This document shows positions 24,166 through 63,104 of a stretch of DNA of 64,000 nt, one piece after another. The position numbers and the translations under genes were made by a program. Within the stretch, counting starts at the first letter, position 1. Every line of letters begins with the position of its first letter. The DNA lies in assembly GCA_019694615.1 (NCBI GenBank), contig JAIBBP010000264.1, positions 958-64,957 on the forward strand. Reading direction: 5' to 3'. Source of the stretch: Microthrixaceae bacterium (GTDB taxonomy: Bacteria > Actinomycetota > Acidimicrobiia > Acidimicrobiales > Microtrichaceae). The notes below the pieces were generated by a model, which saw only the letters and a list, made by a program, of their open reading frames with translations, made no database searches and was not told where the DNA came from.

Positions 24166-24167
24166 GG

Positions 24168-26838: not shown

Positions 26839-26844
26839 ACCCAC

Positions 26845-26860: not shown

Positions 26861-26972
26861 GGCGAAACTTCGCGGGCGAGATCAGCCGTTGTGGATGAGT
26901 GTCATGAGGACGAATCGCGCGGCGCCTACCGCTGTCGGCCCGTGCGGAGGGGCTTGTCCGGCGCCGGGACTA

Positions 26973-27671: not shown

Positions 27672-27761
27672 CCGACTTGAGGCTAGGTGCGCACGAGGCG
27701 CTCAGCGGTCCCGGTTCCGGCGTCGTGCCACGACGCTGGAGCCGCGCCAGTCGCCGGTTCG

Positions 27762-27787
27762 GGGTAGGCCCGCAGCCGGGCCTACCC
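27762..27787. terminator. stem-loop GGGTAGGCCCG-CAGC-CGGGCCTACCC
   Basis: Perfect 11-bp stem located 55 nt downstream of the Shedu-like gene stop. It also contains the GGGCCTAC core in both orientations. Confidence 0.4.
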
Positions 27788-27842
27788 AGCCCCTCGATCG
27801 GGCGTCGTCACCCCTGATTTCTTCCCGTGGCCGCGCGCCGAC

Positions 27843-36163: not shown

Positions 36164-37300
36164 ATGAAGCTCCCAGCAGCGGCCGCACTCGCCTGCCTCG
36201 TGACCATCGGGGGGTTCACCTCCCTGCCGATCCTCGCCATCGGTGTCGGCGGCACGTCACCACCCGGTTGTGGGGAGGTCGGCGAGGTCGCCGACGACGG
36301 CACCCCCAGCATCCTCGGCCCCTCAGCCCTGAGGGTGAGCGGCCTGCGCGCCTGGTGGAACAGCACCGGCCGCGGCCAGCCGCCGCGCCTTCGCATCGCC
36401 ATCGAGGACCTCATCGCGCTCTACGTCACCGAAGGCGACGCCGAAGGAGTCCGAGGCGACGTGGCCCTCGCCCAAGCGGTGCTGGAGACGGGCCACTTCA
36501 CCAACAGCGACACCGCCATCAACAACTTCGCCGGAATCGCCCACTACGACGGCACCGCGTCCGGGTCCGGGTTCGCCGATCCGATCATCGGCGTGCGCGC
36601 GCAGATCCAGCTGCTGAAGAAGTACGCACTCGGCAACGACGCTCCGCTCGCCAACCCCAACGTCGCGCCGCGGGCTGGGGCATCCGCGACGACGTGGGGT
36701 GGCCTCGCCGGGACGTGGGCGTCAGCAACGACCTATTGGACCTCGCTCAGCTCGGTGTACGAGTCGATGCTCACCCACGCAGGCTCGACGCCCGACCCAG
36801 CCGACCCCTTCGCGTCACTCGGTCCACTGACGTGTGGAAGCGGGGACCTCGCCGTCAGCGGCGACTATGCCCTACCGGTCGAACGGCGCTGGTACGACGA
36901 GAACCCCCGCTGGTTCACCAAGCCCCACCACGACTACCCGGCCGCCGACATCCCCGTGCCCGTCGGGACACCGCTCTACGCCGTCACCAACGGCGTCGTC
37001 GTCGGGACGCCGACGAGCGGGAAGTGCGGGATCGGGGTCATCTTCAACGGCGACGACGGAGCCCAGTACACCTACTGCCACGGCAACCCCGGCACCCAAG
37101 CTGTCGCGATCGGTGACCGCGTCAACGTCGGGCAGCGCCTCCTCGACAGCGCCTCCACGGGCAAAAGCACCGGACCCCACCTCCACTTCGGCATCCGCAT
37201 CGACGGCACCCAACGTTGCCCGCAGCCGTTCTTCGTCGCGATCGCCGACGGTCAACCCCTCGCACCGCAGGGTCTCCCCACGAGCGGCTGCTCCTACTGA
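36164..37300 (+). CDS. secreted cell-wall hydrolase (glucosaminidase-like domain + M23 peptidase)
   Basis: Signal-like N-terminus, LETGHFTNSDTAINNFAGI (glucosaminidase-like), M23 motifs HHDYPAADI and GPHLHFGIRIDG. Confidence 0.85.
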   Translation: MKLPAAAALACLVTIGGFTSLPILAIGVGGTSPPGCGEVGEVADDGTPSILGPSALRVSGLRAWWNSTGRGQPPRLRIAIEDLIALYVTEGDAEGVRGDVALAQAVLETGHFTNSDTAINNFAGIAHYDGTASGSGFADPIIGVRAQIQLLKKYALGNDAPLANPNVAPRAGASATTWGGLAGTWASATTYWTSLSSVYESMLTHAGSTPDPADPFASLGPLTCGSGDLAVSGDYALPVERRWYDENPRWFTKPHHDYPAADIPVPVGTPLYAVTNGVVVGTPTSGKCGIGVIFNGDDGAQYTYCHGNPGTQAVAIGDRVNVGQRLLDSASTGKSTGPHLHFGIRIDGTQRCPQPFFVAIADGQPLAPQGLPTSGCSY

Positions 37301-43689: not shown

Positions 43690-44549
43690 GTCTCTGCTCC
43701 GATGCTGGTGGGCCCTCCGGCCCGTGCGGTGAACCGTTCGGGCAGCTCGATGTCGGCCATGCGGGTGAGGAGCCAGCCGCCGGCAGCGAAGATGCCACCG
43801 ACGATCGCCAGCATGACTTGGCCGCCAGCGCTGTCGTAGACGGTGAGGTAGTCGCGGTTGGCGATGGCGAGGAACACCACGGCGGCGATGACGACGCCGA
43901 CGATCACCTTCGTCGCGGTGCGGACGCGAGTCCGACCGACCTCCACTCGGATGCGCATCCGTGCGTCTCCTCGGGTGGCCTCGGCGAGGCGGGACAGAAG
44001 CCCGGAGAGATCAGCGGCTTCCATGCGGGATGCGATCACGAGGGCCGCGACGACAAGGTCGCCGGAGGGGTGGTCGAGATCCTCGCCGAAGGCGACGAGT
44101 GCCTCGGGGAGTCGTTCGTGGTCGAGGCGTCTCACCATCGTGCGTACCTCGCTGGAGATCGGTGGTGGCGCGACAGGGGCGGTGGCGACGATCGCCTCTT
44201 CGAGGCCGGACGCGGCGACGATCGAGTCGCGGATCATCTCGGTCCACGAGGCGATGGCCTCGGTGCGGTCGATGGCCTGCTGTCGAGCGGCCTTGCCGCC
44301 GAGGATTCCAGGCAGGACGAGGACGGCTACGGCGGCCAGGATCCCGCCGACGAGCCACCCGGTCGCGGCCATCGCCAGAAGCGCCGCCACGGCCGCAACC
44401 GTGACCTTCGGCAGAAGCGAGCTGGAGCGCACGCGCTGGACATAGCTCGACGGTGCGTCGAAGAGTCGGCGACCGGTGAGGCCAGCGAGGACCAAGAGCA
44501 GCCCCAGGGCTACGCCTGCGGCGAGGGCTGCGAAGACGAGTGTGCTCAT
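43686..44549 (-). CDS. tadB: Tad platform protein TadB (T2SS-F family)
   Basis: Start trimmed to MSTLVFAAL (ATGA overlap with the tadA stop). T2SSF-like topology. Confidence 0.8.
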   Translation of the reverse strand: MSTLVFAALAAGVALGLLLVLAGLTGRRLFDAPSSYVQRVRSSSLLPKVTVAAVAALLAMAATGWLVGGILAAVAVLVLPGILGGKAARQQAIDRTEAIASWTEMIRDSIVAASGLEEAIVATAPVAPPPISSEVRTMVRRLDHERLPEALVAFGEDLDHPSGDLVVAALVIASRMEAADLSGLLSRLAEATRGDARMRIRVEVGRTRVRTATKVIVGVVIAAVVFLAIANRDYLTVYDSAGGQVMLAIVGGIFAAGGWLLTRMADIELPERFTARAGGPTSIGAET

Positions 44550-45898
44550 CGCCACCACCCCTGCGCGGCGGCGTGGGCGGTCGCGTCGAAGCCGTGCACC
44601 TCGAGCTGCGCGGCGAACTCCGGTGTGGGCGGCGCGGCCGGGACACCCGATCCGGATGCGTCTGGTCGCCACAGTTCGTTGGAGACGACCTGGCCACCCT
44701 CGACGGCGCCGACGACCTGACGCACGCTGGTCACGCGGCGCTCGCCGTTGACCCAACCGAGGTGCACGATCAGATCGACGGCGTTCGCTACCAGCAGGTT
44801 GGTGACATCGGGGACCAGTCGCTCGGGGGTCATGGCCGCATACATGGCGAGGCGTCCGAACACGCCCTTGGATGAGTCAGCGTGGATCGAACACATCGAT
44901 CCGTCGTTGCCCTGGCTCATGGCGAGGAGCATCGGGAGGACCTCGGCGCCGCGAACCTCGCCGACGATGACCCGTTGCGGGTCCATGCGCAGCGCCGAGC
45001 GGACGAGCTCGGCGAGGCTGAAGGACCCGACGCCTTCGGTGTTGGCTTCACGGGCTTCGAGCGTCTCGTGGTCGGGGTGGAGGTCCTCGAAGCGCTCGAG
45101 TCCGATCTCCAAGGAGTCCTCGACTGTGATGAGGCGCTCGTCGGCTGGGATCTCGTTGATCAGGCACCGCAAGGTCGTGGTCTTCCCGGTGCCGGTTCCG
45201 CCGGCCACGATGATGTTGGCCCGAGCCCGCACCGCAGCAGACAGGAAGCTGGCCGTCAGGTCGTCGCACACGCCGAGCTCGACGAGTTGGGACACGCGGT
45301 GGATGTCGAAGTCGTGGCGGCGGATCGTCACCGTCGGGCGACCCGACACCGCCATGAGGGCATGAAGGCGATCACCGTTCGGGAGCTGCAGGTTCAGCTC
45401 CGGGTGCGCGTGATCCCAGCGACGCTCGCTGCGACCGATGCGCCGCGCCGCGGTGGAGATCAGCTCGACGAGATCCTCGTCGGAGTCCGCCACGGCGGGC
45501 CCGCGGACCTTCGTGCCGTCGCGCAGGTTGAGCCAGACCCGCAGCGCGCCCGAGATGTGGATGTCCCGGATGTCTGGGTCGTCGAGCAGTGGTTGGAGGC
45601 GGGCGAGCCCGTGGATGCGGTCCAGGACAGCCGCGGTGACCTTCGCTTCGGTGGCCTCGTCGAGAGGCACGCGCCCGTCCGAGTACGCGGACGCTGCCAA
45701 CTTGCGAAGTTCGTCGGTCACCAACTTGCGAGCCAGCGCACGTTCATCGGCTGGAGAGAACCGCCCCCGCCCAGCCTCCTCGTGCGCCACATGGGCCGTG
45801 GTCAGTGCCTCGCCAACGCGGTGGTGCAGGTCGGCAACCAGCGCAGGATCGATCCCGTCGCGCTGCCACGCCCCCGAGCCGTTCAGTGCCGTGGTCAT
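44546..45898 (-). CDS. tadA: Tad secretion ATPase TadA/CpaF
   Basis: Walker A GGTGTGKTT, Asp box ERLITVEDSLE, Walker B VIVGEVRG, His box. Confidence 0.95.
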   Translation of the reverse strand: MTTALNGSGAWQRDGIDPALVADLHHRVGEALTTAHVAHEEAGRGRFSPADERALARKLVTDELRKLAASAYSDGRVPLDEATEAKVTAAVLDRIHGLARLQPLLDDPDIRDIHISGALRVWLNLRDGTKVRGPAVADSDEDLVELISTAARRIGRSERRWDHAHPELNLQLPNGDRLHALMAVSGRPTVTIRRHDFDIHRVSQLVELGVCDDLTASFLSAAVRARANIIVAGGTGTGKTTTLRCLINEIPADERLITVEDSLEIGLERFEDLHPDHETLEAREANTEGVGSFSLAELVRSALRMDPQRVIVGEVRGAEVLPMLLAMSQGNDGSMCSIHADSSKGVFGRLAMYAAMTPERLVPDVTNLLVANAVDLIVHLGWVNGERRVTSVRQVVGAVEGGQVVSNELWRPDASGSGVPAAPPTPEFAAQLEVHGFDATAHAAAQGWWR

Positions 45899-46605
45899 GA
45901 CGCCGCCACCGCTGTCGTCGGCTCAAGCAGCACCGAACTCAGCGCAACTCCGAGGGCACCCACCGCACGAGCGAGCTGTGAACGGGCCAGATGGGAGCGA
46001 GAGCCGCCCACCCGCAGCACCTCGGCGGCATCGGGGTCGTTGGGCAGCTGACCGATCACCGAAACCCCAACGGCCCGCTCGACATCTTCCACCCCGTAGG
46101 GGCCGTCGCCGACGAGCACGACGGCCACCCGACCCCGGACCGCCTGGCGCAGTGTCGGCACGAGATGGGTCAACGCGACGAGCTGATCGGCGACCGGGTT
46201 CACGAACACCGCCAGGAGATCGGAGGCGGCGACGATCGGTACCGGTGAGCGGAGACGTCCAGCGTCTACGATCGCGACTCCGTCAGCCGCAACGAGCTTG
46301 TGAGTGATCCGCTCTCCCGCGGTCCGCCACACCGACGTGCTCGCAGCGGGGGCATCGGGACCCACCAGCACGGGGACGCCACCGGCATCCTGCGCGTGTG
46401 CTCGCCAACCGCCGTCAGCGTCGGGCCCGTCGGCCGCGAACGTCGTCAGGCCAGGTTCACGGCCGAGCCCGTATCGCACCGCGAGAACCCCGCCGTCGAG
46501 GTCAGCCTCGACCACCAGGGCATCGGTGAAGGTCGACGCGAGCAGGATCGCGGTGGTCGTCACACCGGGTGCGCCCCGGACCGAAGCCAAGCTGATGACC
46601 TTCAT
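45895..46605 (-). CDS. TadZ/CpaE-like degenerate ParA/MinD-fold protein
   Basis: N-terminal VISLASVRGAPGVTTTA replaces a canonical deviant Walker A. Position and operon coupling match TadZ. Confidence 0.55.
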   Translation of the reverse strand: MKVISLASVRGAPGVTTTAILLASTFTDALVVEADLDGGVLAVRYGLGREPGLTTFAADGPDADGGWRAHAQDAGGVPVLVGPDAPAASTSVWRTAGERITHKLVAADGVAIVDAGRLRSPVPIVAASDLLAVFVNPVADQLVALTHLVPTLRQAVRGRVAVVLVGDGPYGVEDVERAVGVSVIGQLPNDPDAAEVLRVGGSRSHLARSQLARAVGALGVALSSVLLEPTTAVAAS

Positions 46606-47273
46606 GGCGAGACCAGCACCAACCTCAGCCCACCAGCACTCGCCGCGGCCGCGACCGCCTCAGCGTCAGCCTCGGTTGCGAGTACCGACACCAAGAGCCG
46701 GTCACTGGCCAGCTCATCGACGGCGAACACGGTCGCATCTCGGGCGATGACCGCAGGATCCGCCTCGAGCTCGGCGACGTCGGCCGAGCGAACGACGTTG
46801 ACCCGATCGCCCGGGGCCAGGCCACGTGCCGGGTACGCACCAGGGTCGAGCGAGAGGCCGACCACGCCGTCGCCGTCCTGGACCGTTGCAGCATCGGCGA
46901 TCACCGAGGTCGTGAGGAGCGTGCCCTCGGCCAGGTCGACCAGCGCCACGCGACCCACCACTCGGTCGAGCTGGGAGCCGTCGAGCCGAGCCAACGCATC
47001 GTCGCTCGACACGTACGCCACCTTCACGTCGTTCGCGTCGATCACCTCGCCCCGCTCAACGCTCGACACCAAGACCAATGCAGGAACCTTCTCGACAGCG
47101 CTCAAGTGCCAGAGCACCGCGCCCAGCGCGAACACGGCCATGACCAACACGCCGACGACAAGCTCAGGCACTCGCACTCGCCTACCGGGCGGGCGAACGT
47201 CAACGCTGCGCCGAGCACCTTGGCCGTTGGACGACGGCGCATCGGGCCGAGTCGCGGTTCGAGGAGCGGCCAC
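46602..47273 (-). CDS. CpaB/RcpC-like SAF-domain pilus assembly protein
   Basis: N-terminal TM anchor followed by a SAF-like block VLVSSVERGEVIDANDVKVAYV. Confidence 0.65.
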   Translation of the reverse strand: MAAPRTATRPDAPSSNGQGARRSVDVRPPGRRVRVPELVVGVLVMAVFALGAVLWHLSAVEKVPALVLVSSVERGEVIDANDVKVAYVSSDDALARLDGSQLDRVVGRVALVDLAEGTLLTTSVIADAATVQDGDGVVGLSLDPGAYPARGLAPGDRVNVVRSADVAELEADPAVIARDATVFAVDELASDRLLVSVLATEADAEAVAAAASAGGLRLVLVSP

Positions 47274-47275
47274 TG

Positions 47276-48151
47276 CTACCGGCCTCCCCGCGTCCCGATC
47301 GCTTGGATCTCACCGACCTCGACATCGAGCGTCGACGAGCGCGTGATCGCCGGGAGCGCGCCGCCACCGGCGGCGTTCGACGTCCACGACACCTCGAGCG
47401 TCACCGTCGCCTCCAGGTTGAAGGTGCCACCCGGCCGCGTCGCTGACGAGCTGCGGTAGGTGTGGGTGCAAGACGACGCGCCCTCCGACGAGCCAGGTCG
47501 CCACGGGGTGCCCGGACCGCGACACGACACCGACCCGCCGTCGCCGAGTTCCCAAGTCGTAGCGACCGGTGTCGCTCGCACCGTGGACCAAACACGACCG
47601 GTGTTGGCTGTCGCTTCGTAGGTCTGCCACCACGTCGAGTCCAGCCACAGCCAGGTCGGCACCTGGACGTACAGGCGCCCGTTCTCCGACGGGCTCGTGC
47701 GGATCGCCGGTGGCGCGATCTGAACCGAGGCGAGCGCGTCGAGCGCGAGCTGGTGGGGATCGACCAACCCACCTTCGGGGATGAGGAAGAAGCCGTCGAC
47801 CGCTACGGCTCCGACTCCGGGGCACCACCGTTCCAACCATCGGCCGGTCGCCGAGTGTTGGGTCTCAAGTGTGTCGACGTCGTAGATGCCGAACTCGAAG
47901 TCATCTTCGATCACCACGTGCCACTCGCAGGGGTCCTCTGAGCCCGATCCGCCACCGCCCGACCCTCCGCCACCACCAGACCCGCCTTCCTCGGCGACTG
48001 CGGTCGGATCTCCGTCAGGGTCGACAAACGCGCCACCGTCGCCGTCCGGTCGTTCGCCGGCTCCGGCCTGACCCGCCGAGACGACCACGATTGAGAGCGC
48101 TGTGAGTAGCGCGACTACGAGGCGTGTGCGCATCCCGCGACTCCTTCCCAC
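47276..48151 (-). CDS. secreted hypothetical protein of the Tad operon
   Basis: Signal peptide LVVALLTALSIVVVSAGQAGA, a Gly/Ser linker and a Cys-containing beta-rich domain. Confidence 0.5.
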   Translation of the reverse strand: MGRSRGMRTRLVVALLTALSIVVVSAGQAGAGERPDGDGGAFVDPDGDPTAVAEEGGSGGGGGSGGGGSGSEDPCEWHVVIEDDFEFGIYDVDTLETQHSATGRWLERWCPGVGAVAVDGFFLIPEGGLVDPHQLALDALASVQIAPPAIRTSPSENGRLYVQVPTWLWLDSTWWQTYEATANTGRVWSTVRATPVATTWELGDGGSVSCRGPGTPWRPGSSEGASSCTHTYRSSSATRPGGTFNLEATVTLEVSWTSNAAGGGALPAITRSSTLDVEVGEIQAIGTRGGR

Positions 48152-48783: not shown

Positions 48784-49037
48784 GGTCACGCCTCCTCGTT
48801 CGGGACGACCCCCTTCCGGCATCGCTGAGTTGGGCACCCAGCGAATCCCGCAGTTCCACGTCGGCGCGACGATCGCACTGCGAGTCAGGTGGAGGAGGTC
48901 AGCCCCGTAACGGTCGGGCAGACGAGACCGGGCATCGACGAGTCGATGTCGCACACAACGGTAGCGAGCCTGTGTCGATCTTGCTCGACGAGCACGGGCA
49001 ACGCGCGGGAGTGACAGCGGCCGCATGGCGGGTCGGT

Positions 49038-49715
49038 TCAGCTCGCTAGGGGGAGTTCACGGAGGCGAGCCTCGGCGCGCCACCGGCGATGCCACAGCAC
49101 TTTGAGCGACACCTGCTGCTCGGCGGCGAGCTCGGCCATGGACTCTCCACCAACCCGGCTGCGCAGGATCGTCGCGAGGACCTCGTCGGATATCCCCGAC
49201 GAGGAGCTTGCGGTGGCGAGCTCTTCGAGGAAGGCGTGGCTGACGAACTGCTCCTCTGCGGAGGGCGCCTCTGTCGCCACACACGATCCGATCTGGCGCC
49301 TAGCCTTGTCCTGCTCGCGGCGGTAGCGCTTGCGGACGTCGAGCAGGACGTTGGCCGACACCGATCCGGGTCGGCTCGCGGGGTAGGTGCGGATGCGTTC
49401 CCATGCGAGCCTGACGATGTCGTCGATCGCGTCGTCGTCGCGCCCGACACGGTGGGCAAGGTTGCACAGACCGCCGAGCAGTCCTTGGAGCAGAGTTCGG
49501 GCCGCGAGATGATCAGCGGGCGCCAAGGCTGCGAGTGCCCGTCGGACCGCTGGCCCATCGTCGGGGTTGAAGCCGAGGTCGATCACGTCGTCGAGGTCTG
49601 CGGCTGACGTGAGCACTGGGTGGGTAGCCGACCAGCGCATCAGCGCTCGCCTTGCGGATGGAGAGCCGGCGATCGCCGACCACTCCCTGTTGAGGGATCG
49701 CAGGATCTCTGCCAT
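49038..49715 (-). CDS. sigma-70-family-like (ECF-like) factor
   Basis: AGGAGG 6 nt before the ATG. Region-2-like IVRLAWERIRTY and region-4 HTH ESMAELAAEQQVSLKVLWHRRWRAEARLREL. Confidence 0.55.
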   Translation of the reverse strand: MAEILRSLNREWSAIAGSPSARRALMRWSATHPVLTSAADLDDVIDLGFNPDDGPAVRRALAALAPADHLAARTLLQGLLGGLCNLAHRVGRDDDAIDDIVRLAWERIRTYPASRPGSVSANVLLDVRKRYRREQDKARRQIGSCVATEAPSAEEQFVSHAFLEELATASSSSGISDEVLATILRSRVGGESMAELAAEQQVSLKVLWHRRWRAEARLRELPLAS

Positions 49716-49760
49716 CGGAAGCCTCCTGGTGTCGTTGAGCACCAGCAGGGTCCGCGTGGC

Positions 49761-49855
49761 ACCTCCCGTGCGACCTCCCGTTCGACCTCCCGTTTCGAAG
49801 ATTTCTGGTCGGTTGCCTCCCGTCCGAGGGGTCCGGCCTCCCGTTCGACCTCCCG
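49761..49855 (+). repeat. iteron cluster 1: six copies of (A/G)CCTCCCG, mostly 12-bp phased
   Basis: Copies start at 49761, 49773, 49785, 49815, 49836 and 49848. Longer consensus CGACCTCCCGTT. Intergenic, between the sigma-like gene and 49917. Confidence 0.8.
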
Positions 49856-49895
49856 TCCACGGGATTTCGCTGCTGCCAACGCGCGCTATCGACCC

Positions 49896-49910
49896 CGCCG
49901 AGGGGCCTAC
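49896..49910 (+). promoter_or_regulatory. conserved motif CGCCGAGGGGCCTAC-N6-ATG (instance C)
   Basis: Ends 6 nt before the ATG at 49917. Confidence 0.45.
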
Positions 49911-49916
49911 GGGGGC

Positions 49917-50462
49917 ATGGAACGTGATCGGATACTGAGGTTCACCCCCGTCGACCACCCCGACGACCGGGTGCAACGTGTCGGCTTCGATCTGACCGAC
50001 CCCTACGTCGAGCAGTGCTGGTCGGCTGTCGTCGGGCCGAGCTCGACCTTGCTGCTCCGTCGGATGCCGGACCTGTGGGCCGTCAACTCGCCCCGCGAGA
50101 TCCAGGCCACTGAGCTGTCTCGTTCGCTCGGCCTCGGTCGCGGTGTGGGCGAGCGCAGCCGCCTCATGAGCACCATGAATCGGCTCGTCCAGTACCGGCT
50201 TGCCCGGCCAGCTCCGGACGGCGCCGGGCTGGAGGTCTTCCGCCAGGTCTCACCACTCACCCCCCATCAGCTCGACCGGGTGCCGCAGTTGACCCGCGAC
50301 ACCCACGAACGGCTCTTCGGCACCCACCTCGAGCAGATCGACGACCTGGCCCAGCACCAGGCGAGCGTCGCGTCGATCACGGCTCGTCTCGACCGCATCC
50401 AGAACAGTTCCGGCCGACCAACCAACGGGCTCGCGCCTCAGGGCAAGGCGCTCGGGCGATGA
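49917..50462 (+). CDS. hypothetical DNA-binding-like protein, paralog of 18424-18879
   Basis: Shares blocks with the 18424 protein. First gene of the relaxase operon, directly downstream of the iterons. Confidence 0.6.
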   Translation: MERDRILRFTPVDHPDDRVQRVGFDLTDPYVEQCWSAVVGPSSTLLLRRMPDLWAVNSPREIQATELSRSLGLGRGVGERSRLMSTMNRLVQYRLARPAPDGAGLEVFRQVSPLTPHQLDRVPQLTRDTHERLFGTHLEQIDDLAQHQASVASITARLDRIQNSSGRPTNGLAPQGKALGR

Positions 50463-50552
50463 GCTTCACTCGCCGGAACGGCTCTCCCGGAACACCCGTC
50501 GGCCCGGTCCCGTTCATCGGTGCCGAACAGCAGATCCGGCGCGCACACATTT

Positions 50553-50577
50553 GCAGGTTTCCCTCCGGGAAACCTGC
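50553..50577. promoter_or_regulatory. oriT candidate hairpin GCAGGTTTCCC-TCC-GGGAAACCTGC
   Basis: Perfect 11-bp inverted repeat 25 nt upstream of the relaxase GTG, followed by iteron-like GTCTCCCG at 50581-50588. Confidence 0.5.
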
Positions 50578-50601
50578 TGCGTCTCCCGTTGGCGGTCTCC
50601 G

Positions 50602-53600
50602 GTGAAGTTCACGGTCACTCCGCTGGGCGGAGGCCGGGGGGACGCTGCGCGTGTGGTGGACGCGATCGTGCGCTACCTCCAGCCGCCTCCGAAGGCCGCC
50701 CCGTCGAGCAGCACTCCAGCGCCGGACGCTGGTGGTCCCGAGCGGTACTACGCGGATCGCGGGGAGGAGCCGGGGCGGTGGCTCGGTCGCGCTGCTCACG
50801 GTGCCGGGCTCACGGGGGCGGTGCTGCGGCCGGACTTCGCATCGGTTCTGGCTGGTCGGGACCCTTACACCGACGAACGGCTCATCACTGCCCAGGGCTC
50901 TGCGGGGCGGCGACCGACGTTGGGTTCGGGCGCCCACACCAAGGTCGGAGCCGATGGGGAGCAGCTCTATGACGTGGCCGACGCTGCTGCGGCCCTCGGG
51001 TTGTCGCACCGGGAGGTCGAGCGGATGCTCGACGTCGGCACGGCGGTCGCTCTCGGCACCTTTACACAGGCCGTGGGTGTCCAAGCCACGCCGGGAGACG
51101 AGGCAGGACCTCCCGCGCGACCTCCCGACGCGTCTCCCGAATCGGTGGGACCTCCCGTTCCACCTCCCGCGCGACCTCCCGTTTGGTCTCCCGTTGGCGC
51201 TGTGACCAGGCAGTTCTGGCAGCCGGGAGGTTCCTACCTCGTGCCCTTGGTCGAAGGTGACGGGTCGCGGTGGGTGCGGGCCGGCGAGCTGGCCCGTTGC
51301 GCCCATGCCCGCGACGCGGGAATCGACCCCGGGGACATCCGATCGCTGGGAGCACCCGACGACCAGCTGAGCCTGGCCGAAGCCGCCCGGCTGGTCGGCC
51401 TCACCAAGCAGTACCTGCGCGGCCTCGCCCGCTACCACGAGAACTACCAGGTGGAGATCGAGCGATCCCTCGCGGCCGGGCGGCACCCGCGCCGGGCGTT
51501 CCTGGTCGCTCACCGTGGCACCAAGGGCCGGTGGTTGGTCACCCGTGAACACCTGGCCGAGTTCGTGGAACGGCGCCGCCCTCCGGCGGTGCGAGTCGGC
51601 TACGACCTGACCTTGACCACAGAGAAGTCCCTCGGCGTGCTCGCGCTCCTCGGCGACGCGACGACCCGTTCCGCGGTGCTGGGGTCGATCCAGGCCGGGA
51701 ACGACTGGGCGCTCGGCTGGCTCGAAGATCACGCCGCGGTCGGCCGGGTCGACGGCAAGCCAGTGACCGGTGAGGGGTGGATGGTGGCGTCCTTCCGGCA
51801 CCTCACCTCCCGCGCGCTCGACCCGTTCCCGCACCATCACAACGTGATCGCCAACACCGTCCGCCTCTCCGACGGCACCAACCGGGCGCTCGACGCCCGT
51901 GCCCTGTATCGCCACGCTCAGGCCGCCTCCGCGCTCGCGACCGCCGAGATGCGCCACCAGCTCACCAACGACCTCGGCGTGAGGTGGCGTCCGGGCCGCA
52001 AGTCCGGTTGGGAGATCGAGGGCATCACCAACCAAGTGGTCGGCGAATTCTCCAAGCGCCGCAACGAGATCGACGACGCCCTACGGGAGCTCGAAGAAGA
52101 GATCGGTCGAGGCGCGCATCCTGGCGAGGTCGAGCACATCGTGCTGCGAACGCGCCCGGCCAAGAACCACACGCCCGCGGATGACTTGATCGCTTCGTGG
52201 CGTGACCGCGCCGCCCGCCACGGCCTCACCCCCGACACGCTCGCCGACCTCTCCGGGCACGACACCCAGGCCCAGGCGGTTGATGAGGCGGCGTTGTTCG
52301 AGTCGCTCGCCGGGGCAGAGGGAATCTGCTCGGGTGGATCGGTCTTCTCGCGGTCCGAGGCACTCGTCGCCATGGCGAACCATCCCGTGCCTGGCGCCGA
52401 TGGCGAACAGGCGCAGCCGCTGCTGTGTGGCGCGTCTCGATTGATCGAGCTGACCGATCAGTTCCTCGCGTCGGAGCAGGTGGTCGCGCTCACCGACGCC
52501 GACGAACCGCTCTACACGACCGTGGAGATGCTCGGCGTGCAGGACCGCATCGCGGCCCGCTTCACCAAGGGACTTCATCGGGGCGCGCACCTCGTCCCCG
52601 ATGGCCACGTCGAGGCCGCGCTCGAACGGCACGCGCACCTCACCGGCGAACAGCGGCGGCTTGTCACGGAGTGGTGCCAACGCGGGCATCGCTTCCAAGC
52701 CGCCATCGGACGCGCCGGGGCTGGCAAGACCACAACCGTCGCCGCGTGCGCGGATGCGTGGACTGCCGCCGGCTACCGGGTCCTCGGTGCAGCCGTGAAG
52801 GGCGAAGCGACGCGGACCCTGGCCGCGGCGACCGGGATCGACTGCGAGACCGTCGCTTGGTATCTCGTCCACACCGATCCCCAGTCGTTGCCGCTGGACT
52901 CGCGGACGATCCTCGTCGTCGACGAAGCCTCCACGCTGTCGGACCGTGACCTCGACACCTTGATGGAGATGGCCGCGACCACCGGGGCGAGCCTCCGGCT
53001 GATCGGCGACCCAGCCCAGCACGGTGCCATCGCTGCGGGGGGCATGTTCCGCGTCCTTTGCGAGCGCCACGAACGCGACACCCCCGAGTTGGTGACCACC
53101 CACCGGCTCCAAGACCCCCACGACCGTGCGGCGGCCCAGGCACTGCGCGAGGGTCGGATCGACGAAGCGTTCGACCAGCTCGCTGCGGCCGGTCACCTCC
53201 ACATCGTCGCCGACGACCTCGCCATGTACCGCGAGGTGCTCGGCCGCTGGTGGGACGCCCACCGCGACGGGCTCGAGCATCCGATGGTCGACCGGCGCAA
53301 CAGCACCCGCCGCCAGCTCAACCGTCTCGCCCACCTCCTCCGACGCGTGAACGGCGAACTCGACGGCGACGAGATCACCGCCAGCGGAGACCGACACTTC
53401 GCCGTCGGCGACCGGATCACCGCCCGCGCCCCCAACCGCGACCTCCACGTCGACGGCGACCGGCACGCGTATGTCCGCAATGGTGCGCTCGGCACGATCG
53501 TCGCCGTGCGCCCCGACCGACGTGACCCAGCCGACGACACGCTGACCGTCGACTTCGACGGCATCGGCACGATCGACATCCCGAGGTCGTTCTTCGATCA

Positions 53601-53952
53601 TCACCGCACCCCCGCTGGTCGACCCGAGGTCGGTATCGACCACGCCTACGCCCTCACCTCCTACGCGGTGCAGGGTTCGACCCGCGACGTGTCCACCAGC
53701 CGCGTCGACGCGACCGCCACCCGCTCGGAGACCTACGTCGACATCACCCGCGGACGCCACGCCAACCACCTCTACCTCACCGCCTCGGTCGACCCCCTCG
53801 ACGGCGAAGCCCTCCCACGCGTCCCAGCCGCACCCGCAGACCTCGCCGTCGCCGAACGCCTCCAACGCTCCACCGGCGAACTCACCGCCTGGGAACTTGC
53901 CCACCCCGCCGACCAAGCGCAGTCCGTGGCAGACCAAGCCGTCGGAATCTGA
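50602..53952 (+). CDS. MOBF-type relaxase/helicase (TrwC/TraA-like)
   Basis: N-terminal TrwC-like block (ERYYADRGEEPGRWLG...LAGRDP), His triad FPHHHNVIAN, Walker A GRAGAGKTT, Walker B LVVDEASTL, C-terminal UvrD-like YALTSYAVQGST. Confidence 0.9.
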   Translation: MKFTVTPLGGGRGDAARVVDAIVRYLQPPPKAAPSSSTPAPDAGGPERYYADRGEEPGRWLGRAAHGAGLTGAVLRPDFASVLAGRDPYTDERLITAQGSAGRRPTLGSGAHTKVGADGEQLYDVADAAAALGLSHREVERMLDVGTAVALGTFTQAVGVQATPGDEAGPPARPPDASPESVGPPVPPPARPPVWSPVGAVTRQFWQPGGSYLVPLVEGDGSRWVRAGELARCAHARDAGIDPGDIRSLGAPDDQLSLAEAARLVGLTKQYLRGLARYHENYQVEIERSLAAGRHPRRAFLVAHRGTKGRWLVTREHLAEFVERRRPPAVRVGYDLTLTTEKSLGVLALLGDATTRSAVLGSIQAGNDWALGWLEDHAAVGRVDGKPVTGEGWMVASFRHLTSRALDPFPHHHNVIANTVRLSDGTNRALDARALYRHAQAASALATAEMRHQLTNDLGVRWRPGRKSGWEIEGITNQVVGEFSKRRNEIDDALRELEEEIGRGAHPGEVEHIVLRTRPAKNHTPADDLIASWRDRAARHGLTPDTLADLSGHDTQAQAVDEAALFESLAGAEGICSGGSVFSRSEALVAMANHPVPGADGEQAQPLLCGASRLIELTDQFLASEQVVALTDADEPLYTTVEMLGVQDRIAARFTKGLHRGAHLVPDGHVEAALERHAHLTGEQRRLVTEWCQRGHRFQAAIGRAGAGKTTTVAACADAWTAAGYRVLGAAVKGEATRTLAAATGIDCETVAWYLVHTDPQSLPLDSRTILVVDEASTLSDRDLDTLMEMAATTGASLRLIGDPAQHGAIAAGGMFRVLCERHERDTPELVTTHRLQDPHDRAAAQALREGRIDEAFDQLAAAGHLHIVADDLAMYREVLGRWWDAHRDGLEHPMVDRRNSTRRQLNRLAHLLRRVNGELDGDEITASGDRHFAVGDRITARAPNRDLHVDGDRHAYVRNGALGTIVAVRPDRRDPADDTLTVDFDGIGTIDIPRSFFDHHRTPAGRPEVGIDHAYALTSYAVQGSTRDVSTSRVDATATRSETYVDITRGRHANHLYLTASVDPLDGEALPRVPAAPADLAVAERLQRSTGELTAWELAHPADQAQSVADQAVGI
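51108..51193 (+). repeat. iteron cluster 2: seven copies of (A/G)(C/T)CTCCCG inside the relaxase ORF
   Basis: Copies start at 51108, 51120, 51132, 51150, 51162, 51174 and 51186. In frame, the stretch encodes GPPARPPDASPESVGPPVPPPARPPVWSPV. Confidence 0.8.
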
Positions 53953-54289: not shown

Positions 54290-55042
54290 TCAGTTGAGCT
54301 GAACCACTAGCTCGCCTACCGCGAGCAAGTCGGATCGCTCGACATCCGACACCGCCGATCGGCTGTCCATACGAAGCCACCGAAACGAGCGATCGACTTC
54401 ATCAACGAAGTACCGTTTGCACATCGTCGCGGTGCTCGAGACGAGGATCCGTGGAGCGGTCCTTCTCAGTTCGGCAGCAATGGAGGCGGCACCGAATGCC
54501 CCGACAATGCGGACCACGTCGTAGATGTCGCCGCTGCGCTTGTCTGGTCGCGAGTCACGGCGGCCCTCGACCGAATGAAGCTTCATTGCGACGATGGCAG
54601 TCGGAGTTGCGACTGGGACTGTCACCTCAACCAGCGTCTCTCGAGAACTCGAGCTCACGACGCGCAGCAGACGGTTGACAGCCGTCTCGAGCGCGAACGA
54701 GTGAGCGAGGTACGCACCGCTGTGCGGGTCCCCACCGGACACGTCAATGATGTCCACGTCGACGAACGTCGAGCCCGATGCGATCGTGACTCCATTCCTC
54801 GACTGCTGCGCACCTTGCTCGACAAGGAGCTCCAGCGCACTGTCAGCGTCAATCGACACTGTGTCGAGATCGCCAGTTGGCCGGTGGAACCCGTTGAGGT
54901 TCACGGCTACAGACACACCACCGACGAGTGCCCATGTGGGCAATCTGGCTGGAAGCGCTCCTAGAGCTGAGAGGGCCTTGACGGCGAAGGCGTCCGGTGT
55001 GGTGGCGACGAAGACGACCGCCGCCCTGTCAACGCCAGACAT
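54290..55042 (-). CDS. AbiEii/AbiGii-like nucleotidyltransferase (toxin-type)
   Basis: N-terminal ALVGGVSVAVNLNGFHRPTGDLDTV (GG ... R-x-T-x-D-x-D) NTase motif. Overlaps the upstream gene by 14 nt. Confidence 0.6.
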   Translation of the reverse strand: MSGVDRAAVVFVATTPDAFAVKALSALGALPARLPTWALVGGVSVAVNLNGFHRPTGDLDTVSIDADSALELLVEQGAQQSRNGVTIASGSTFVDVDIIDVSGGDPHSGAYLAHSFALETAVNRLLRVVSSSSRETLVEVTVPVATPTAIVAMKLHSVEGRRDSRPDKRSGDIYDVVRIVGAFGAASIAAELRRTAPRILVSSTATMCKRYFVDEVDRSFRWLRMDSRSAVSDVERSDLLAVGELVVQLN

Positions 55043-57425
55043 CGCGGTATCCGACGAGTTGGGCCGGAAATTCTGGGTATTCCGGAGGCTCCGATTCGGG
55101 TTCATGGGCCTTGGCGTCGGCGCCCTGTCGTTGTCGCCATGCTGTCTCGGTTCTCGCTTCACTTACGAACAACGCGGCAAGTTCGAGGCTCCCGTCGCGG
55201 AGTGCCGGCCACGCTCCCATGGCCAGATAGCCCTCAAGCGCATTGCCCTCGTCTCCGGCTACCCGTCGAAGCCCCTGGAAGACACGACGGAGTTCAGCGG
55301 CCATGTCACTGCTCGCGAGCATCCGGACGAGCGGAAGAGTGCTGTCACCACCAGAGTGGAACATCATTCGCCGGTCACGCCGACGTTGTTTCCTGTCGCC
55401 AGCGTCGTCTTCGGCGCCGACCCATCTCAGCCATGCGCTGGTTGCCTCCTTCAGCGCGGTTCGCCGGAACTCACCGTCTGCCTCGTCAGCGACCTCGAGC
55501 AGGCCGCGGATGCCGCCGGGCTCAGGCCCGCCCAGCAGGCTGGGCCCCGGTTGTTCGACGGCAGCTCGGGCGGCTACCAAGGCCTGGTCGAGCAGGACTT
55601 CGCGTCTGCGTGCATCGCCGTAGCGGCTCGCGACCGCTAGAACCTTGGCCCTCACGTGAAGGTCGGCGACAGCAGGCGCGGATTGCTCGATGCCGGCCAG
55701 CGCTCGTTCGAGCGCGTCGCCATCCAAGACGGGGAGGAGCTCGGCTATCGGCATGGCTCGGCCGTCGATGTCGGCGGTCAGCAATTCGTTCAGGAGCCTT
55801 CGGCGATCCGCCGGCGAGTTGTCAACGCTCGATCGTGCCCGGGAGCAGAATTCGTACCACCACGGGTCGTCGCCGGAAGACCACTCCGACCACCGACGCG
55901 TGCCCTCATGGTGCCAGACCGGCTTCGGCCGGCGAACGACCTCTTCGAGATGCGCCCTGACGGGTCCCTCGTACACGGCGATCGGATCGAGCCTGAGCAG
56001 GTAGTGCGCCTCTCCAGCTGTCGCCCAAGCGTCCCGCTCGGGCTCGTCTGTCTCCAGCCATTCCTGCGCGATGTCCCGAAGGACCGATCGAGGTGCCCCC
56101 GAACGAACCGCTTCCTCGACAGCGCTACGCAGACCGGAGTCTGGCGGGTCAATGTCGCGAGACCGGACCGGTTCCTCCAGGAGGAGACTTGGGGCGTAGT
56201 CGACAAGACGACGGAGTCCCCACCGTCCCCGAGACTCCATGGCGCCGATGACGTCGAGGAGTCGCCGTCGCACTGTGACGCGTAGGTCATCCGGGCAGCC
56301 TGGGTGCTGATAGAGCACGGCAAGGCCCTCGGCATGCGAGTCCCAGCAGGCCGCCGCTGCAGCGCGCCACAACGGCTCTGGCGTTGCATCGGTAAGAATG
56401 TCCTCGAGCCAGTTCGCCTGAACCCAACCCGCACGTCGATAGACCTCCAGTACCGCGAGCGTTCCCAGCTCCGTGCTCGCAGGGCGCCAGACTTCGACCG
56501 TTTCACGGCCACGTTGATCCTCGGCGAGATCGAGCGCCACGACGACCGGGTGAGCGAACCGCACACCCGACACAGGGTTGGTGATCACGACGCTCTCGAA
56601 GTTCGACTCAACACGGACGGCGACTTGACTGCTATCGGGGTCGAGAGCGCCCGCCTTGCGGGATTTGGAAAGCCGCCGGAGCAAGGCCTCGGACCCGACA
56701 ATCAGGTTGATCGGTCCACCCGCACCAAGGAGGACCGGCGCACCCAGTGCCTCAGCAGCGCCATTGCCCGTTGCCACGGCAACGCCGTCGAGTCTCAGAT
56801 CCTCCAGCGCGTCATCGACCTGCATCCACTCGCCAGGCCACGCATCCGCGAGAGCCCAGAACAGCTCGGGAAGGAGAGGCTTCCCATCGGCCCGAAGCAG
56901 TCCATCCTCCTCGAGACCAGCGAGAATCGTGGAGACATACCCTGCTGAGCGGTCGACGCTTCGGGCCAGAGCGCGAGGCGAACCCGACTCATCTGGCCTC
57001 AAGAGGAGGCCGAGTACCACGTCGCGCACGGCAGGAGTGAACGAGCGTGGCGCGCGCCTGTCGGGCAAGCCGTAGCCCGGATTGAACGAGACATCCAGTC
57101 TCAGTCGCTCGGTCCAGATCCGTACGCTTCCGCGCCGATCCAGCCAACCGATCCCGAGCGAACGGAGCGCAGCGCGTGCCGCGTCGCTGAGGCGATCAGA
57201 AACGACGACCGCTATCTCCCCTTTGTCGACTGGATCGAGTGCTGCCAGCTCTGCGGGGGTCGGGTGCGCTCGGTTCACCAACCTCACATCGATGGATTCC
57301 CCGTCCACCACGAGACGCCGCGGACCAAGGACCGTCGTAGGGATGCCTGACTCTGTCAGGGCGTCAGCCAGCTCCTCGAGCGAGGCGTTTGGCGATTGGG
57401 ACGGCACAGACACTGATGGTACCAC
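55029..57425 (-). CDS. 798-aa protein with an internal AbiEi-like antitoxin region and a long helical C-terminal extension
   Basis: wHTH-like SPRALARSVDRSAGYVSTILAGLEEDGLL followed by ...FAHPVVVALDLAEDQRGRE, resembling AbiEi. About 470 further residues have no recognisable motif. Confidence 0.5.
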   Translation of the reverse strand: MVPSVSVPSQSPNASLEELADALTESGIPTTVLGPRRLVVDGESIDVRLVNRAHPTPAELAALDPVDKGEIAVVVSDRLSDAARAALRSLGIGWLDRRGSVRIWTERLRLDVSFNPGYGLPDRRAPRSFTPAVRDVVLGLLLRPDESGSPRALARSVDRSAGYVSTILAGLEEDGLLRADGKPLLPELFWALADAWPGEWMQVDDALEDLRLDGVAVATGNGAAEALGAPVLLGAGGPINLIVGSEALLRRLSKSRKAGALDPDSSQVAVRVESNFESVVITNPVSGVRFAHPVVVALDLAEDQRGRETVEVWRPASTELGTLAVLEVYRRAGWVQANWLEDILTDATPEPLWRAAAAACWDSHAEGLAVLYQHPGCPDDLRVTVRRRLLDVIGAMESRGRWGLRRLVDYAPSLLLEEPVRSRDIDPPDSGLRSAVEEAVRSGAPRSVLRDIAQEWLETDEPERDAWATAGEAHYLLRLDPIAVYEGPVRAHLEEVVRRPKPVWHHEGTRRWSEWSSGDDPWWYEFCSRARSSVDNSPADRRRLLNELLTADIDGRAMPIAELLPVLDGDALERALAGIEQSAPAVADLHVRAKVLAVASRYGDARRREVLLDQALVAARAAVEQPGPSLLGGPEPGGIRGLLEVADEADGEFRRTALKEATSAWLRWVGAEDDAGDRKQRRRDRRMMFHSGGDSTLPLVRMLASSDMAAELRRVFQGLRRVAGDEGNALEGYLAMGAWPALRDGSLELAALFVSEARTETAWRQRQGADAKAHEPESEPPEYPEFPAQLVGYRDVWR

Positions 57426-58252: not shown

Positions 58253-58642
58253 TCACCTCGGGGCCAAGCGGGAGACGGCCCCCTGCGCACAGGCCAGACG
58301 GTCACCCGCCCGCTCTACCGTGGCCTGGGCCTCGCGAAGCGACCCGGCTGCAAGGGCAACCAATTCGTCTGGGGCCGTCTCGGTGGCGGCGTCGCAGCGG
58401 TAGCCGTCGCCTTCTGGGTGTTCGAGGTGCTGCGCCAGTTGGCCGAGAGCCTGGGGGAGGCGCTCGGCCAGGAGACGGAGTTCGGTGAGCACCCCATAGA
58501 GGTCAGCCACGTCCTCCCAGCCCGGCGTTCCCGGAGACGGTCGGCTGAGCGTGAGGTGGTTGAGCGTCCGAACCGCGTCGGCGGCGTGCTCCGCAGCGAG
58601 GTCCGGACCCCGCCCATCCTCCCCGCACAGGGCGGCGGTCAC
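58253..58642 (-). CDS. hypothetical helical protein (129 aa)
   Basis: The GTG start overlaps the integrase stop (GTGA). Confidence 0.4.
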   Translation of the reverse strand: MTAALCGEDGRGPDLAAEHAADAVRTLNHLTLSRPSPGTPGWEDVADLYGVLTELRLLAERLPQALGQLAQHLEHPEGDGYRCDAATETAPDELVALAAGSLREAQATVERAGDRLACAQGAVSRLAPR

Positions 58643-59868
58643 TGGTCCTCCTCGGGCGAGTCGCTCTCGTCGGTCTCGTCGGAGTCCGAGGTCGCCTCCG
58701 AGCGGGCATTGCGGATCAGGAGGGAGAAGGTGTCCGCGGCTGCGGCCTGCATGCCGGGCAGGACGTGCTGGTACACGTTCATCGTGAAAGCGACGTTGGC
58801 GTGCCCGAGCCGCTCGCTGACCACCTTCACGTGCACACCAGCCTTCAGCAACAGGGTGGCATGGGTGTGGCGGAGATCGTGCAGCGAGATCACCGGGACC
58901 TTGATCCTGGCGACCGTGCGGTCGAAGAGCTGGCTGAACGTGTCCGGGTGCAACCACGACCCGTCGTCCTTGGTGAACACCAGATCATCCGCCGCCGGTT
59001 CGGTGCCCTCGCGTTCCTCGGTGCGAGTCTTGAACCAGTCCCGCAGCACCCCGACGACATCGGCGTCGATGTCGATCGTGCGACGGCTCGTCCCCGTCTT
59101 CACGTCCGAGATCGACACCTCGTACGCGACCGACACCAACGCCTGTCGGACCGCGACACGGTTGGCATCCAGGTCGAGATCACGCCACCGCAACCCGAGC
59201 ACTTCGCCCCGGCGCATCCCGGTGTGAGCAGCAAGGAAGAACGCCGGCGACAGCCGGTGCGGGGCGATCGCGCCGAGGAACGTGACGAGCTGATCGATGT
59301 CCCACGCCTTGATCTCGTTGCGCTTGCGGGCCTGCAACGACGGGGGATCAGCCAACGCGACGACGTTGCGGACGACAGTGCCCTTGCGGGCGGCGTCGCT
59401 GAGTGCCTTGTTCAGCATCACGTGGATGTTGTGCACGGTCTTGGGTGCCAGGCCCTTGGCGTCGACCTTCTCGCCAGGGCTCTTCTTCTTGCGTCCCTCC
59501 TTCAGCAGCGACGCGTAGAACAGGTCGATGTCCTCCGCCGTCAGTCGGTCGAGGAGTCGCTCCCCCAGGGCCGGGATGACGTGCAGGTCGATGTTGCGCC
59601 TGTAGGAGTCGTACGTGCTCGCCCGCAGCCGGCTCTCCTGGACGGGCAGCCACCGCGTCGTCAGGTACTGGCCCAGCGTCAGCTTCTCGCTCACCACCGT
59701 CTCGCCACGGTGGCTCCGCTTGGTCAGCTCGGTCACGAGCTTGTCGGCGTCGTCGCGCCGGTTGCCAGCGGCGACCCAGCGCCGCTTCTCCTTGCCCGTC
59801 GCCGGGTCGATGCCGTCGTAGATGACGACGTAGTACTTCTTGCCCTTCTTGGTCACGTAGCCGCGCAT
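58639..59868 (-). CDS. int: tyrosine site-specific integrase (int-2, ICE integrase)
   Basis: MRRGEVLGLRWRD, HDLRHTHAT, LGHANVAFTMNVYQHV. The N-terminal KKYYVVIYDGIDPATGKEKRRW block is shared with int-1. Confidence 0.9.
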   Translation of the reverse strand: MRGYVTKKGKKYYVVIYDGIDPATGKEKRRWVAAGNRRDDADKLVTELTKRSHRGETVVSEKLTLGQYLTTRWLPVQESRLRASTYDSYRRNIDLHVIPALGERLLDRLTAEDIDLFYASLLKEGRKKKSPGEKVDAKGLAPKTVHNIHVMLNKALSDAARKGTVVRNVVALADPPSLQARKRNEIKAWDIDQLVTFLGAIAPHRLSPAFFLAAHTGMRRGEVLGLRWRDLDLDANRVAVRQALVSVAYEVSISDVKTGTSRRTIDIDADVVGVLRDWFKTRTEEREGTEPAADDLVFTKDDGSWLHPDTFSQLFDRTVARIKVPVISLHDLRHTHATLLLKAGVHVKVVSERLGHANVAFTMNVYQHVLPGMQAAAADTFSLLIRNARSEATSDSDETDESDSPEEDQ

Positions 59869-62958: not shown

Positions 62959-63025
62959 GAATCGCCGAAAACGTGGGAACGGCCCTCTCCGAATCTCTCG
63001 GAAAGGGCCGTCCACCAGGGTTTTC

Positions 63026-63104
<79 letters not shown>

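Follow-up and report, generated by a model that had tools for sequence, protein, structure and literature searches.

An array of short direct repeats inside a MOBF relaxase gene matches sites beside the likely transfer origin of an Acidimicrobiia conjugative element

Why should the gene for a conjugative relaxase carry, within its reading frame, an array of short DNA repeats that also stands outside the gene? The question is raised by a 64,000-nucleotide stretch of contig JAIBBP010000264.1 from a Microthrixaceae bacterium (assembly GCA_019694615.1; hereafter the window, to which all coordinates refer), which contains an integrated conjugative element of ~53.5 kb with a type IV secretion system (T4SS), that is, an integrative and conjugative element (ICE). 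The relaxase-helicase gene of this element (50602-53952, + strand; 1116 amino acids from its likely start, a GTG at 50602) holds at 51107-51193, on the + strand, seven copies of (G)RYCTCCCG with a period of 12 nt and one step of 18 nt, here called cluster 2. The 8-mers RYCTCCCG start at 51108, 51120, 51132, 51150, 51162, 51174 and 51186 (spacings 12/12/18/12/12/12), and the initial annotation of this DNA, made from the sequence alone, had given these positions and spacings correctly to the base. The sequence of 51107-51193 reads gGACCTCCCGcgc GACCTCCCGacg cGTCTCCCGaatcggtgg GACCTCCCGttc cACCTCCCGcgc GACCTCCCGttt gGTCTCCCG. The repeats are in frame with the open reading frame (ORF) 50551/50602-53952 (translation GPPARPPDASPESVGPPVPPPARPPVWSPVG), the first of them lying 505 nt into the gene, and they encode the peptide GPPARPPDASPESVGPPVPPPARPPVWSPV, residues 169-199 of the relaxase. 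That annotation had also proposed that the array is in frame, repeats the motif of a first cluster (cluster 1) and encodes a tract between the TrwC-like N-terminal block and the histidine triad; all three points were borne out, with the tract following the N-terminal TrwC block and preceding the HHH triad at residues 411-413.

We compared the arrays with chance expectation. Cluster 1 (49760-49855, + strand) has six copies, at 49760, 49772, 49784, 49814, 49835 and 49847, in a 3 + 3 layout, and occupies the divergent intergenic region between a sigma-factor-like gene and the gene of a 181-residue protein (p181). The count of RYCTCCCG over the whole window is unremarkable (28, compared with 26.1 expected from shuffles), whereas its clustering is extreme: cluster 2 packs seven copies into 86 nt of one strand, against an expectation of 0.0175 (Poisson 1e-16, or p ~1e-11 once corrected for all starts in the window). 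Within 49761-51812 there are 15 copies on the + strand, against 0.42 expected. The 9-mer GACCTCCCG has seven exact + strand copies in the 64 kb, all of them in cluster 1 (49772, 49784 and 49847) or cluster 2 (51107, 51119, 51149 and 51173), and Tandem Repeats Finder gave a period of 12 for both clusters. No arrays of the motif were found in the rest of the ~53.5-kb element outside the origin and relaxase region, which speaks for a role local to that region rather than for a sigma-factor promoter element or a global regulator. Cluster 2 is also flanked on the - strand by three inverted motif copies (51010-51017, 51092-51099 and 51224-51231), two of them made of the rare Gly codons GGA and GGT. 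Scored for presence or absence only, inverted copies stand at the same offsets in close relatives, mainly within the CCTCCCG motif class defined below, and are not clear in other classes.

We next consider what keeps the array regular. The codon choice of the window's linker is improbable given its peptide (p ~5e-5): over the 31 codons, the GC content at third codon positions (GC3) is 0.48, compared with 0.785 in reference genes, and this is the lowest-GC3 stretch of the relaxase. Across 14 genes with CCTCCCG-class or CATCCCG-class repeats, Pro-Pro is written CCT-CCC in 50 of 66 instances in the linkers but in only 3 of 49 in the remainder of those genes (Fisher 9e-15), and GC3 is 0.55 in the linkers compared with 0.84 elsewhere. 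Among three orthologs with ~88% protein identity (the window, L001 and L003; loci are designated by L numbers), no CTCCCG core column varies (0/42), whereas 22 of the 64 other linker columns do (p = 3e-6); likewise, third codon positions vary at 0 of 14 sites in the cores and at 44% (214/487) in flanking codons (p = 3e-4). That the cores alone are kept while the spacers diverge fits selection on binding sites, and not homogenisation of whole units. The pattern is the reverse of that of an ordinary Pro-rich or low-complexity coding repeat, in which the peptide is kept and the codons drift.

To see how the array behaves over longer distances, we used a comparison set of 79 genome and 78 metagenome loci with relatives of the relaxase N terminus, plus one plasmid of a cultured strain. 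The gene order sigma-like gene, array, p181, hairpin and relaxase is conserved, with p181 present in 51 and the sigma-like gene in 37 of the genome loci. The linker peptide is not conserved. It is of the type PPxR or GHPx in close relatives and VPGS/IPGS, GRAx/GREx, DRAx or GHNL in others, and in roughly one in two of the more distant relatives the linker is essentially missing. The 12-nt period is kept: among 36 distinct linkers of at least 27 nt, the best self-match lag is 12 in 29 and 24 in two more. In each element, the motif class is the same in its own linker, in its cluster 1 and in a third site, site H, that adjoins the hairpin. The window and its close relatives form the CCTCCCG class; L042, L065, L079, L104, L112 and L124 have TTCCCGG; L027, L101, L105, L129 and the Iamia plasmid L080 have GTCGTG; and L026 has TCACAA. 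There are thus at least four motif classes of element-specific, co-varying short repeats with a period near one helical turn.

The match between linker and cluster 1 was also quantified. In 23 genome loci, 7-mers repeated in the linker matched the element's own cluster-1 region 9.96 times on average, compared with 0.2-1.0 in controls and 0.78 on the reverse strand, and the matrix of matches between linkers and cluster-1 regions has a block structure that follows motif class. When metagenome loci were added (41 distinct), the means were 10.98 and 0.81, with 31 of 41 loci above all six controls (Wilcoxon p = 1e-7, a pooled value that, like the others, overstates independence because the compared loci are phylogenetically related). 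Read from the sequences, the independent events appear to be three or four motif switches, each altering all three site groups jointly. De novo motif calling in cluster-1 regions was too noisy in this GC-rich DNA for an analysis of motif distance. The one cultured source, L080, is the 77-kb plasmid of Iamia sp. SCSIO 61187 (NZ_CP050949.1, record 21333-28846); it has the GTCGTG-type motif in cluster 1 and in the relaxase linker (peptide DRALSRARDRAR), its p181 gene is interrupted by an IS3 element, and the plasmid is non-mobilizable according to PLSDB.

These comparisons support selection on the DNA, not on the peptide, and a cis-acting site matched to cluster 1; the DNA sequence seems to dictate the peptide rather than the reverse. 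The initial annotation had argued that selection acts on the DNA and had asked for an alignment of orthologs. The claim gained from that alignment: the peptide changes, the 12-nt repeat is kept and matched to the element's own cluster, and synonymous core sites are frozen, which is the opposite of what would have counted against it, a linker still Pro-rich but written in other codons and without the DNA motif. A further suggestion, that relatives without cluster 1 would also be without the linker, proved only half correct. The ~18 distant relatives examined have arrays of the cluster 1 type, whereas the in-gene array is confined to a subclade. The motifs in the distant cluster-1 arrays include CGTTCCG, CTTACCCG, GCTCACCG, GCACGCGG, GCCTCATC and others, with a period of 11-13 bp and often a 3 + 3 layout, and some of these relatives (for example L036, L047 and L048) have extra copies 60-130 bp upstream of the hairpin. 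Arrays in distant relatives that have no in-gene array indicate that cluster 1 is family-wide and that cluster 2 is a derived addition in one subclade.

The surroundings of the third site bear on what the repeats are for. A perfect inverted repeat, GCAGGTTTCCC-tcc-GGGAAACCTGC (50553-50577; 11-nt arms, 100% complementary, 3-nt loop), stands 25 nt ahead of the relaxase start. Site H (50580-50602, + strand) begins 3 nt past this hairpin with the motif copy CGTCTCCCG (50580-50588), and a degenerate copy, GTCTCCGG (50595-50602), overlaps the GTG start codon. Logos built separately for cluster 1, cluster 2 and site H agree on GGACCTCCCGTT, and all copies in these groups are on the + strand. At 1.76 bits per column, the hairpin is kept across 80 distinct related loci, and its arms show compensatory changes such as GCAGCTTTCCC/GGGAAAGCTGC and GCAGGTGCCCC/GGGGCACCTGC. 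Its two flanks differ. The 16 nt on the p181 side (CACACNYTT) hold 1.30 bits per column, compared with 0.5 on the relaxase side; this variable relaxase-side flank contains the element-specific site, and the copy adjacent to the hairpin changes with motif class. In MOBF origins such as those of R388 and F, an inverted repeat is followed after ~8 nt by the nick site (nic) on the transferred strand. By analogy, the hairpin at 50553-50577 is likely the transfer origin (oriT), the conserved p181-side flank (CCGGCGCGCACACATTT; 50536-50552, which follows the hairpin on the - strand) is likely, when read on that strand, the nic region, and an accessory protein would bind at the variable site next to the hairpin. 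The predicted nick would fall on the - strand ~8 nt 3' of the hairpin, within AAATGTGT/GCGCGCC. A hairpin and a motif copy beside a MOBF relaxase gene, with nic placed by analogy, is the arrangement expected of accessory repeats of a relaxosome. Another TCTCCCG, at 50483, was not counted as a site; the stretch that contains it, GGCTCNCCNGGAA, looks conserved whatever the motif class (five relatives, compared by eye).

Cluster 1 lies at -840 to -750 relative to the relaxase start, a placement kept in relatives. Between its two halves (49793-49813), nearly all relatives of any motif class have a relatively AT-rich GATTTC / GAAATC, an element that may be a promoter -10 region or a bending site. 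Next to cluster 1, a palindrome CTGGTG-N8-CACCAG (49722-49752) occupies the 5' leader of the sigma-like gene on the - strand, over its ribosome-binding site (CCTCCTGGTGTCGTTGAGCACCAGCAGG). In 18 relatives, examined by eye, its shape is kept and its arms change jointly (L027, for instance, has CTCGTGTCGTTGAGCAACGAG); it may serve as a translational hairpin or as an operator in its own right. No RNA family was recognised in 49000-52000 by Rfam, even at a permissive threshold, and a scan of 49600-51300 for sigma-70 promoters and terminators found none.

Taken with the sequence comparisons, these observations suggest that cluster 2 is probably a cis-acting array of double-stranded DNA sites for an element-encoded, sequence-specific protein, one of three groups of such sites. 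The location of the third motif beside an oriT-type hairpin points to relaxosome or operator sites, and these, rather than replication iterons, are what the repeats most likely represent. The reader protein would bind one unit per 12 bp (a 9-bp box and a 3-bp spacer), coating each array, and would contribute to the assembly or regulation of the relaxosome and the p181-relaxase operon. It may, in addition, join the two arrays to each other. Cluster 1 lies ~780 bp to one side of the hairpin and cluster 2 ~530 bp to the other, with the single site abutting it, and bridging would hold the origin in a loop of ~1.3 kb; array bridging, and hence looping of the origin, is plausible.

The predicted structure of the relaxase suggests how such an array could be accommodated in a coding sequence. 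Its TrwC domain is split by an insert of two modules resembling HTH_17, a helix-turn-helix (HTH) family, and cluster 2 lies in the loop of the first. In an AlphaFold2 model of the N-terminal 560 residues, the predicted local distance difference test (pLDDT) score is below 50 at residues 159-202, which form a predicted disordered loop; a strand-helix-helix (121-157) precedes it and a hairpin-helix (215-239) follows. The second module (255-324), an HTH_17 match in Pfam, has the same topology. The model places the array where nearly any peptide should be tolerated, and a disordered loop whose peptide is almost free would make the coding location workable. Many database relaxases (P0008, P0012, P0014 and others, with ~60% query coverage) begin just past the linker, and L038, the sole genome contig checked for this, begins at relaxase residue 216. 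Short-read assemblies or gene calls probably break at the array, and the relaxase family is likely under-annotated at its N terminus.

There are three candidates for the reader, of which p181 (49917-50462, + strand) is the most likely. It is good-confidence in AlphaFold2 (pLDDT 82.5), which predicts a winged-helix-like protein with a 40-residue C-terminal helix, and it has no Pfam or NCBIfam family and no sequence relative in the PDB; the description as winged-helix-like follows the topology of the model. An alternative is the divergently encoded 225-residue protein (49038-49715, - strand), which is sigma-70-like with a region-4 HTH and has a weak NCBIfam match to sigma factors (E = 0.018). 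The third is the relaxase itself, through the first HTH module of its insert (HTH1). The second relaxase HTH was excluded as a determinant of specificity, being invariant across motif classes.

A close functional parallel to p181 as reader comes from Clostridium perfringens. TcpK, a winged-helix protein encoded upstream of oriT on pCW3, binds 9-nt boxes with 3-nt spacers, and its dimers bridge two DNA molecules (PMC6137059). The window resembles that system in its 9-nt box (GACCTCCCG), its 12-bp period and a winged-helix-like gene directly upstream of a hairpin, and TcpK is likewise a small winged-helix protein without sequence relatives. By contrast, pCW3 has another relaxase (TcpM) and intergenic boxes, and an in-gene array has not been described for it; no sequence similarity or significant structural similarity was found between p181 and TcpK. 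For MOBF systems, accessory sites (those of TrwA in R388 and of TraY, TraM and IHF in F) stimulate nicking and repress the transfer operon. Like the window, R388 and F combine a MOBF relaxase beside an origin of inverted repeat and nic with adjoining plasmid-specific accessory sites. Their proteins are of ribbon-helix-helix or TraM type and their sites are few and intergenic, whereas in the window as many as 14 direct repeats, in three groups, extend over 1.4 kb, and one of the groups falls within the relaxase ORF.

Two further systems share parts of this arrangement. In the Streptomyces clt locus, short plasmid-specific direct repeats of 8 bp form a cis-acting transfer locus and co-vary with their reader, TraB (PMC4447253). 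That system transfers double-stranded DNA by the FtsK-like TraB and has no relaxase, whereas the window encodes a relaxase, a VirD4-type coupling protein and a VirB4-like ATPase; it is not a clt/TraB system. Auxiliary operators can also lie in coding sequence: lac O2 in lacZ and gal OI in galE loop with a promoter-proximal site. They resemble cluster 2 as a second site for the same protein inside a downstream ORF (looping being only proposed in the window), but they are single operators under ordinary coding constraint, whereas cluster 2 is an array of many units that dictates its peptide.

Several observations weigh against this interpretation or against p181 as the reader, in addition to the relatedness of the loci. 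In Foldseek, p181 had no significant match, the best being the DnaD-like domain of DnaB (E = 0.06), with MarR-type proteins at E ~1-3. In each candidate reader a segment varies with motif class (the helix at residues 81-92 in p181, the C-terminal helix in the sigma-like protein and HTH1 in the relaxase), and three or four independent switches are too few to tell the candidates apart. The in-gene array is absent from about half of the more distant relatives; missing in so many, it is not essential to the system. L009 and L010 have the largest in-gene arrays and no cluster 1 or intact p181, which leans against p181. In these two loci, from the metagenome-assembled genome (MAG) AMX-MBFR-46, the arrays have at least 9 and at least 12 units at relaxase offsets +506 to +700; p181 is deleted or cut to a short fusion ORF, P450 and TetR genes adjoin, and the loci look decayed. 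Finally, some arrays contain identical adjacent units (for example GGACATCCCGCT x3 in L009), so slippage contributes to array size, and arrays evidently expand by slippage in decaying elements.

Of the other explanations, the one that survives best, though we consider it doubtful, is an autologous arrangement like that of lambda O, in which the relaxase would read the repeats through its first HTH_17-like module and p181 would have another role. Lambda offers a precedent; its iterons are ~19 bp long. In lambdoid phages, the iterons of ori lie in the middle of gene O, and in Stx phages two extra iterons lengthen the protein by 13 residues, predicted to make no DNA contact (PMC7466680). In lambda, as in the window, binding-site repeats thus lie inside the initiator's own gene, in a part that encodes a connector, and repeat number alters protein length. 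Cluster 2 agrees with this design in being an in-frame array in predicted disorder whose peptide is unconstrained across relatives, and the relaxase insert that contains it is of a DNA-binding type. Most motif classes differ from one another in the HTH1 helix, and L009 and L010 retain large arrays and site H without p181 or cluster 1, as would be expected if the relaxase were the reader. Lambda ori, however, serves theta/sigma replication with 4-6 iterons, an AT-rich region and O as proven reader. The window concerns conjugative transfer, with 12-bp units, no AT-rich unwinding element, candidate readers and arrays that also stand outside the gene. The second HTH, invariant in all classes, counts against the relaxase as reader. 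L026 (TCACAA) and L080 (TCGTGC) have nearly the same HTH1 helix (TRSEVVRML and TRSEVGRML, respectively) and different motifs, and distant relatives have cluster 1 arrays and HTH1 without the in-gene array; together these lean against HTH1. The comparison of HTH1 helices, which is one of sequences, leans slightly against binding of the repeats by the relaxase itself.

A second explanation, which we regard as improbable, is that the array is a functionless by-product: slippage or gene conversion would have copied it from cluster 1 or homogenised it with that cluster, and a permissive loop would tolerate it, perhaps with incidental binding. Copy number is indeed variable, linkers range from 30 to 225 nt, some adjacent units are identical, the array is missing in many relatives and it is expanded in decayed contexts. 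Homogenisation should copy whole units, however, and only the cores are conserved while the spacers are free. The matching has also survived no fewer than three or four changes of motif, with the array staying in place 1.3 kb from cluster 1. In addition, homologous gene conversion works poorly on units as short as 12 nt.

Less probable still is that the clusters are replication iterons that set the copy number of a replicating form of the element by handcuffing, a sense suggested by the initial annotation, which called them iterons and raised handcuffing as a possibility. Plasmid replication iterons with handcuffing are element-specific direct repeats in more than one cluster. The window likewise has element-specific direct repeats in two clusters of the same orientation, and relatives also occur on a plasmid. 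Unlike iteron plasmids, it shows no Rep-type initiator family among those window ORFs that were scanned with Pfam (not every ORF was), no AT-rich unwinding element (GC is 0.67-0.71 across 48-54 kb, with no AT-rich stretch in 50900-51400) and no DnaA-box context, in contrast to the setting expected of a theta-plasmid origin. In unit length (a 12-bp period and a 9-bp box) and in setting it matches a transfer origin. The third site borders an oriT-type hairpin ahead of a MOBF relaxase, and the element is a T4SS element integrated between 63-bp attachment (att) repeats; the annotation's replication and copy-number sense of the term is not supported for it. Least credible of all is selection for a Pro-rich spacer as such, whether a rigid polyproline linker or a pause site dependent on elongation factor P (EF-P), with coincidental likeness to cluster 1: the tract is Pro-rich with PPP, as are those of close relatives, but other clades have VPGS, GRAx, GHNL, DRAx or no linker, codon choice is fixed at synonymous sites and, whatever the class, the motif agrees with the upstream sites of its own element, so that the comparative sequence data appear already to contradict it. 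An anti-Shine-Dalgarno function (CCTCC resembling the 3' end of 16S rRNA) was also rejected, since the other classes (GTCGTG, TCACAA and TTCCCGG) are unlike that sequence and have the same architecture.

The wider context is that of an integrated conjugative element. A 63-bp direct repeat made up of the 3' part of a tRNA-Met gene, 98% identical between its copies at 9527-9589 and 63023-63084, brackets the T4SS, the relaxase and a tyrosine integrase (58639-59868), and its copies are likely the attL and attR of the element. Just beyond the left repeat is a second tyrosine integrase gene (8254-9393), which suggests a tandem or remnant element. The element also encodes a VirD4-type coupling protein (25003-26844; T4SS-DNA_transf 2e-29), a VirB4-like ATPase (30789-32093), an M23/glucosaminidase wall hydrolase (36164-37300) and a CpaF-type ATPase with Tad-like neighbours (44546-48151). 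From the sigma-like gene (- strand), the local order runs through cluster 1, p181, hairpin, site H and relaxase start to cluster 2. The relaxase is of the MOBF type by its TrwC domain (Pfam 1e-60 in two stretches, the best at residues 288-539), its invariant HHH triad at 411-413 and its C-terminal superfamily 1B (SF1B) helicase; Pfam also reports AAA_30 (2e-51) and HTH_17, and the NCBIfam MobF match (2.4e-54) exceeds its 100-bit cutoff. Homologues place the element in Acidimicrobiia, in genomes of Microthrixaceae or Iamiaceae-like type.

A large methylase-helicase of 1909 amino acids is encoded at 19129-24858. ARAGORN called a tRNA-Ala (anticodon cgc) on the - strand at 24562-24647, within the 5' part of this ORF; either the call is false or the ORF begins further downstream. 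Between relaxase and integrase, on the - strand, an AbiEii-type nucleotidyltransferase toxin gene adjoins an ORF of 798 amino acids without a family match (54290-55162 and 55029-57425); the pair is probably a defence or addiction cargo module.

A bolder version of the proposed mechanism, which we hold to be rather unlikely, is that the relaxosome is 'addressed' by an evolvable site code that lies partly within the relaxase gene. The disordered loop would then be a free-coding cassette for arrays that change with their reader, and hairpin extrusion and nicking would depend on a ~1.3-kb loop into which the two arrays clamp the origin; in its strongest form, the split HTH module of the relaxase would read the very DNA that encodes its loop. 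If true, that form would be the equivalent, in conjugation, of lambda O/ori, with a transfer specificity private to each element. If the arrays really bracket and loop the origin, they would represent a new architectural principle for relaxosome assembly. A literature search of incomplete coverage, aimed in part at relaxosome repeats or iterons, and thus absence of evidence, returned no account of binding-site arrays in a relaxase ORF that co-vary with origin-proximal sites.

The locus provides a natural case, made by comparative data alone, of a coding segment that appears to be set by a function at the DNA level, with the protein following. It also names three candidate readers, among them p181, which comes from a widespread family without annotation. 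The rule that emerges, period-12 arrays that match between relaxase linker, divergent promoter and hairpin flank, may be used to predict cross-mobilisation between elements. We know of essentially no experimental work on conjugation in Acidimicrobiia, and for the whole family of elements in this class the comparisons define a likely transfer origin together with its specificity sites.

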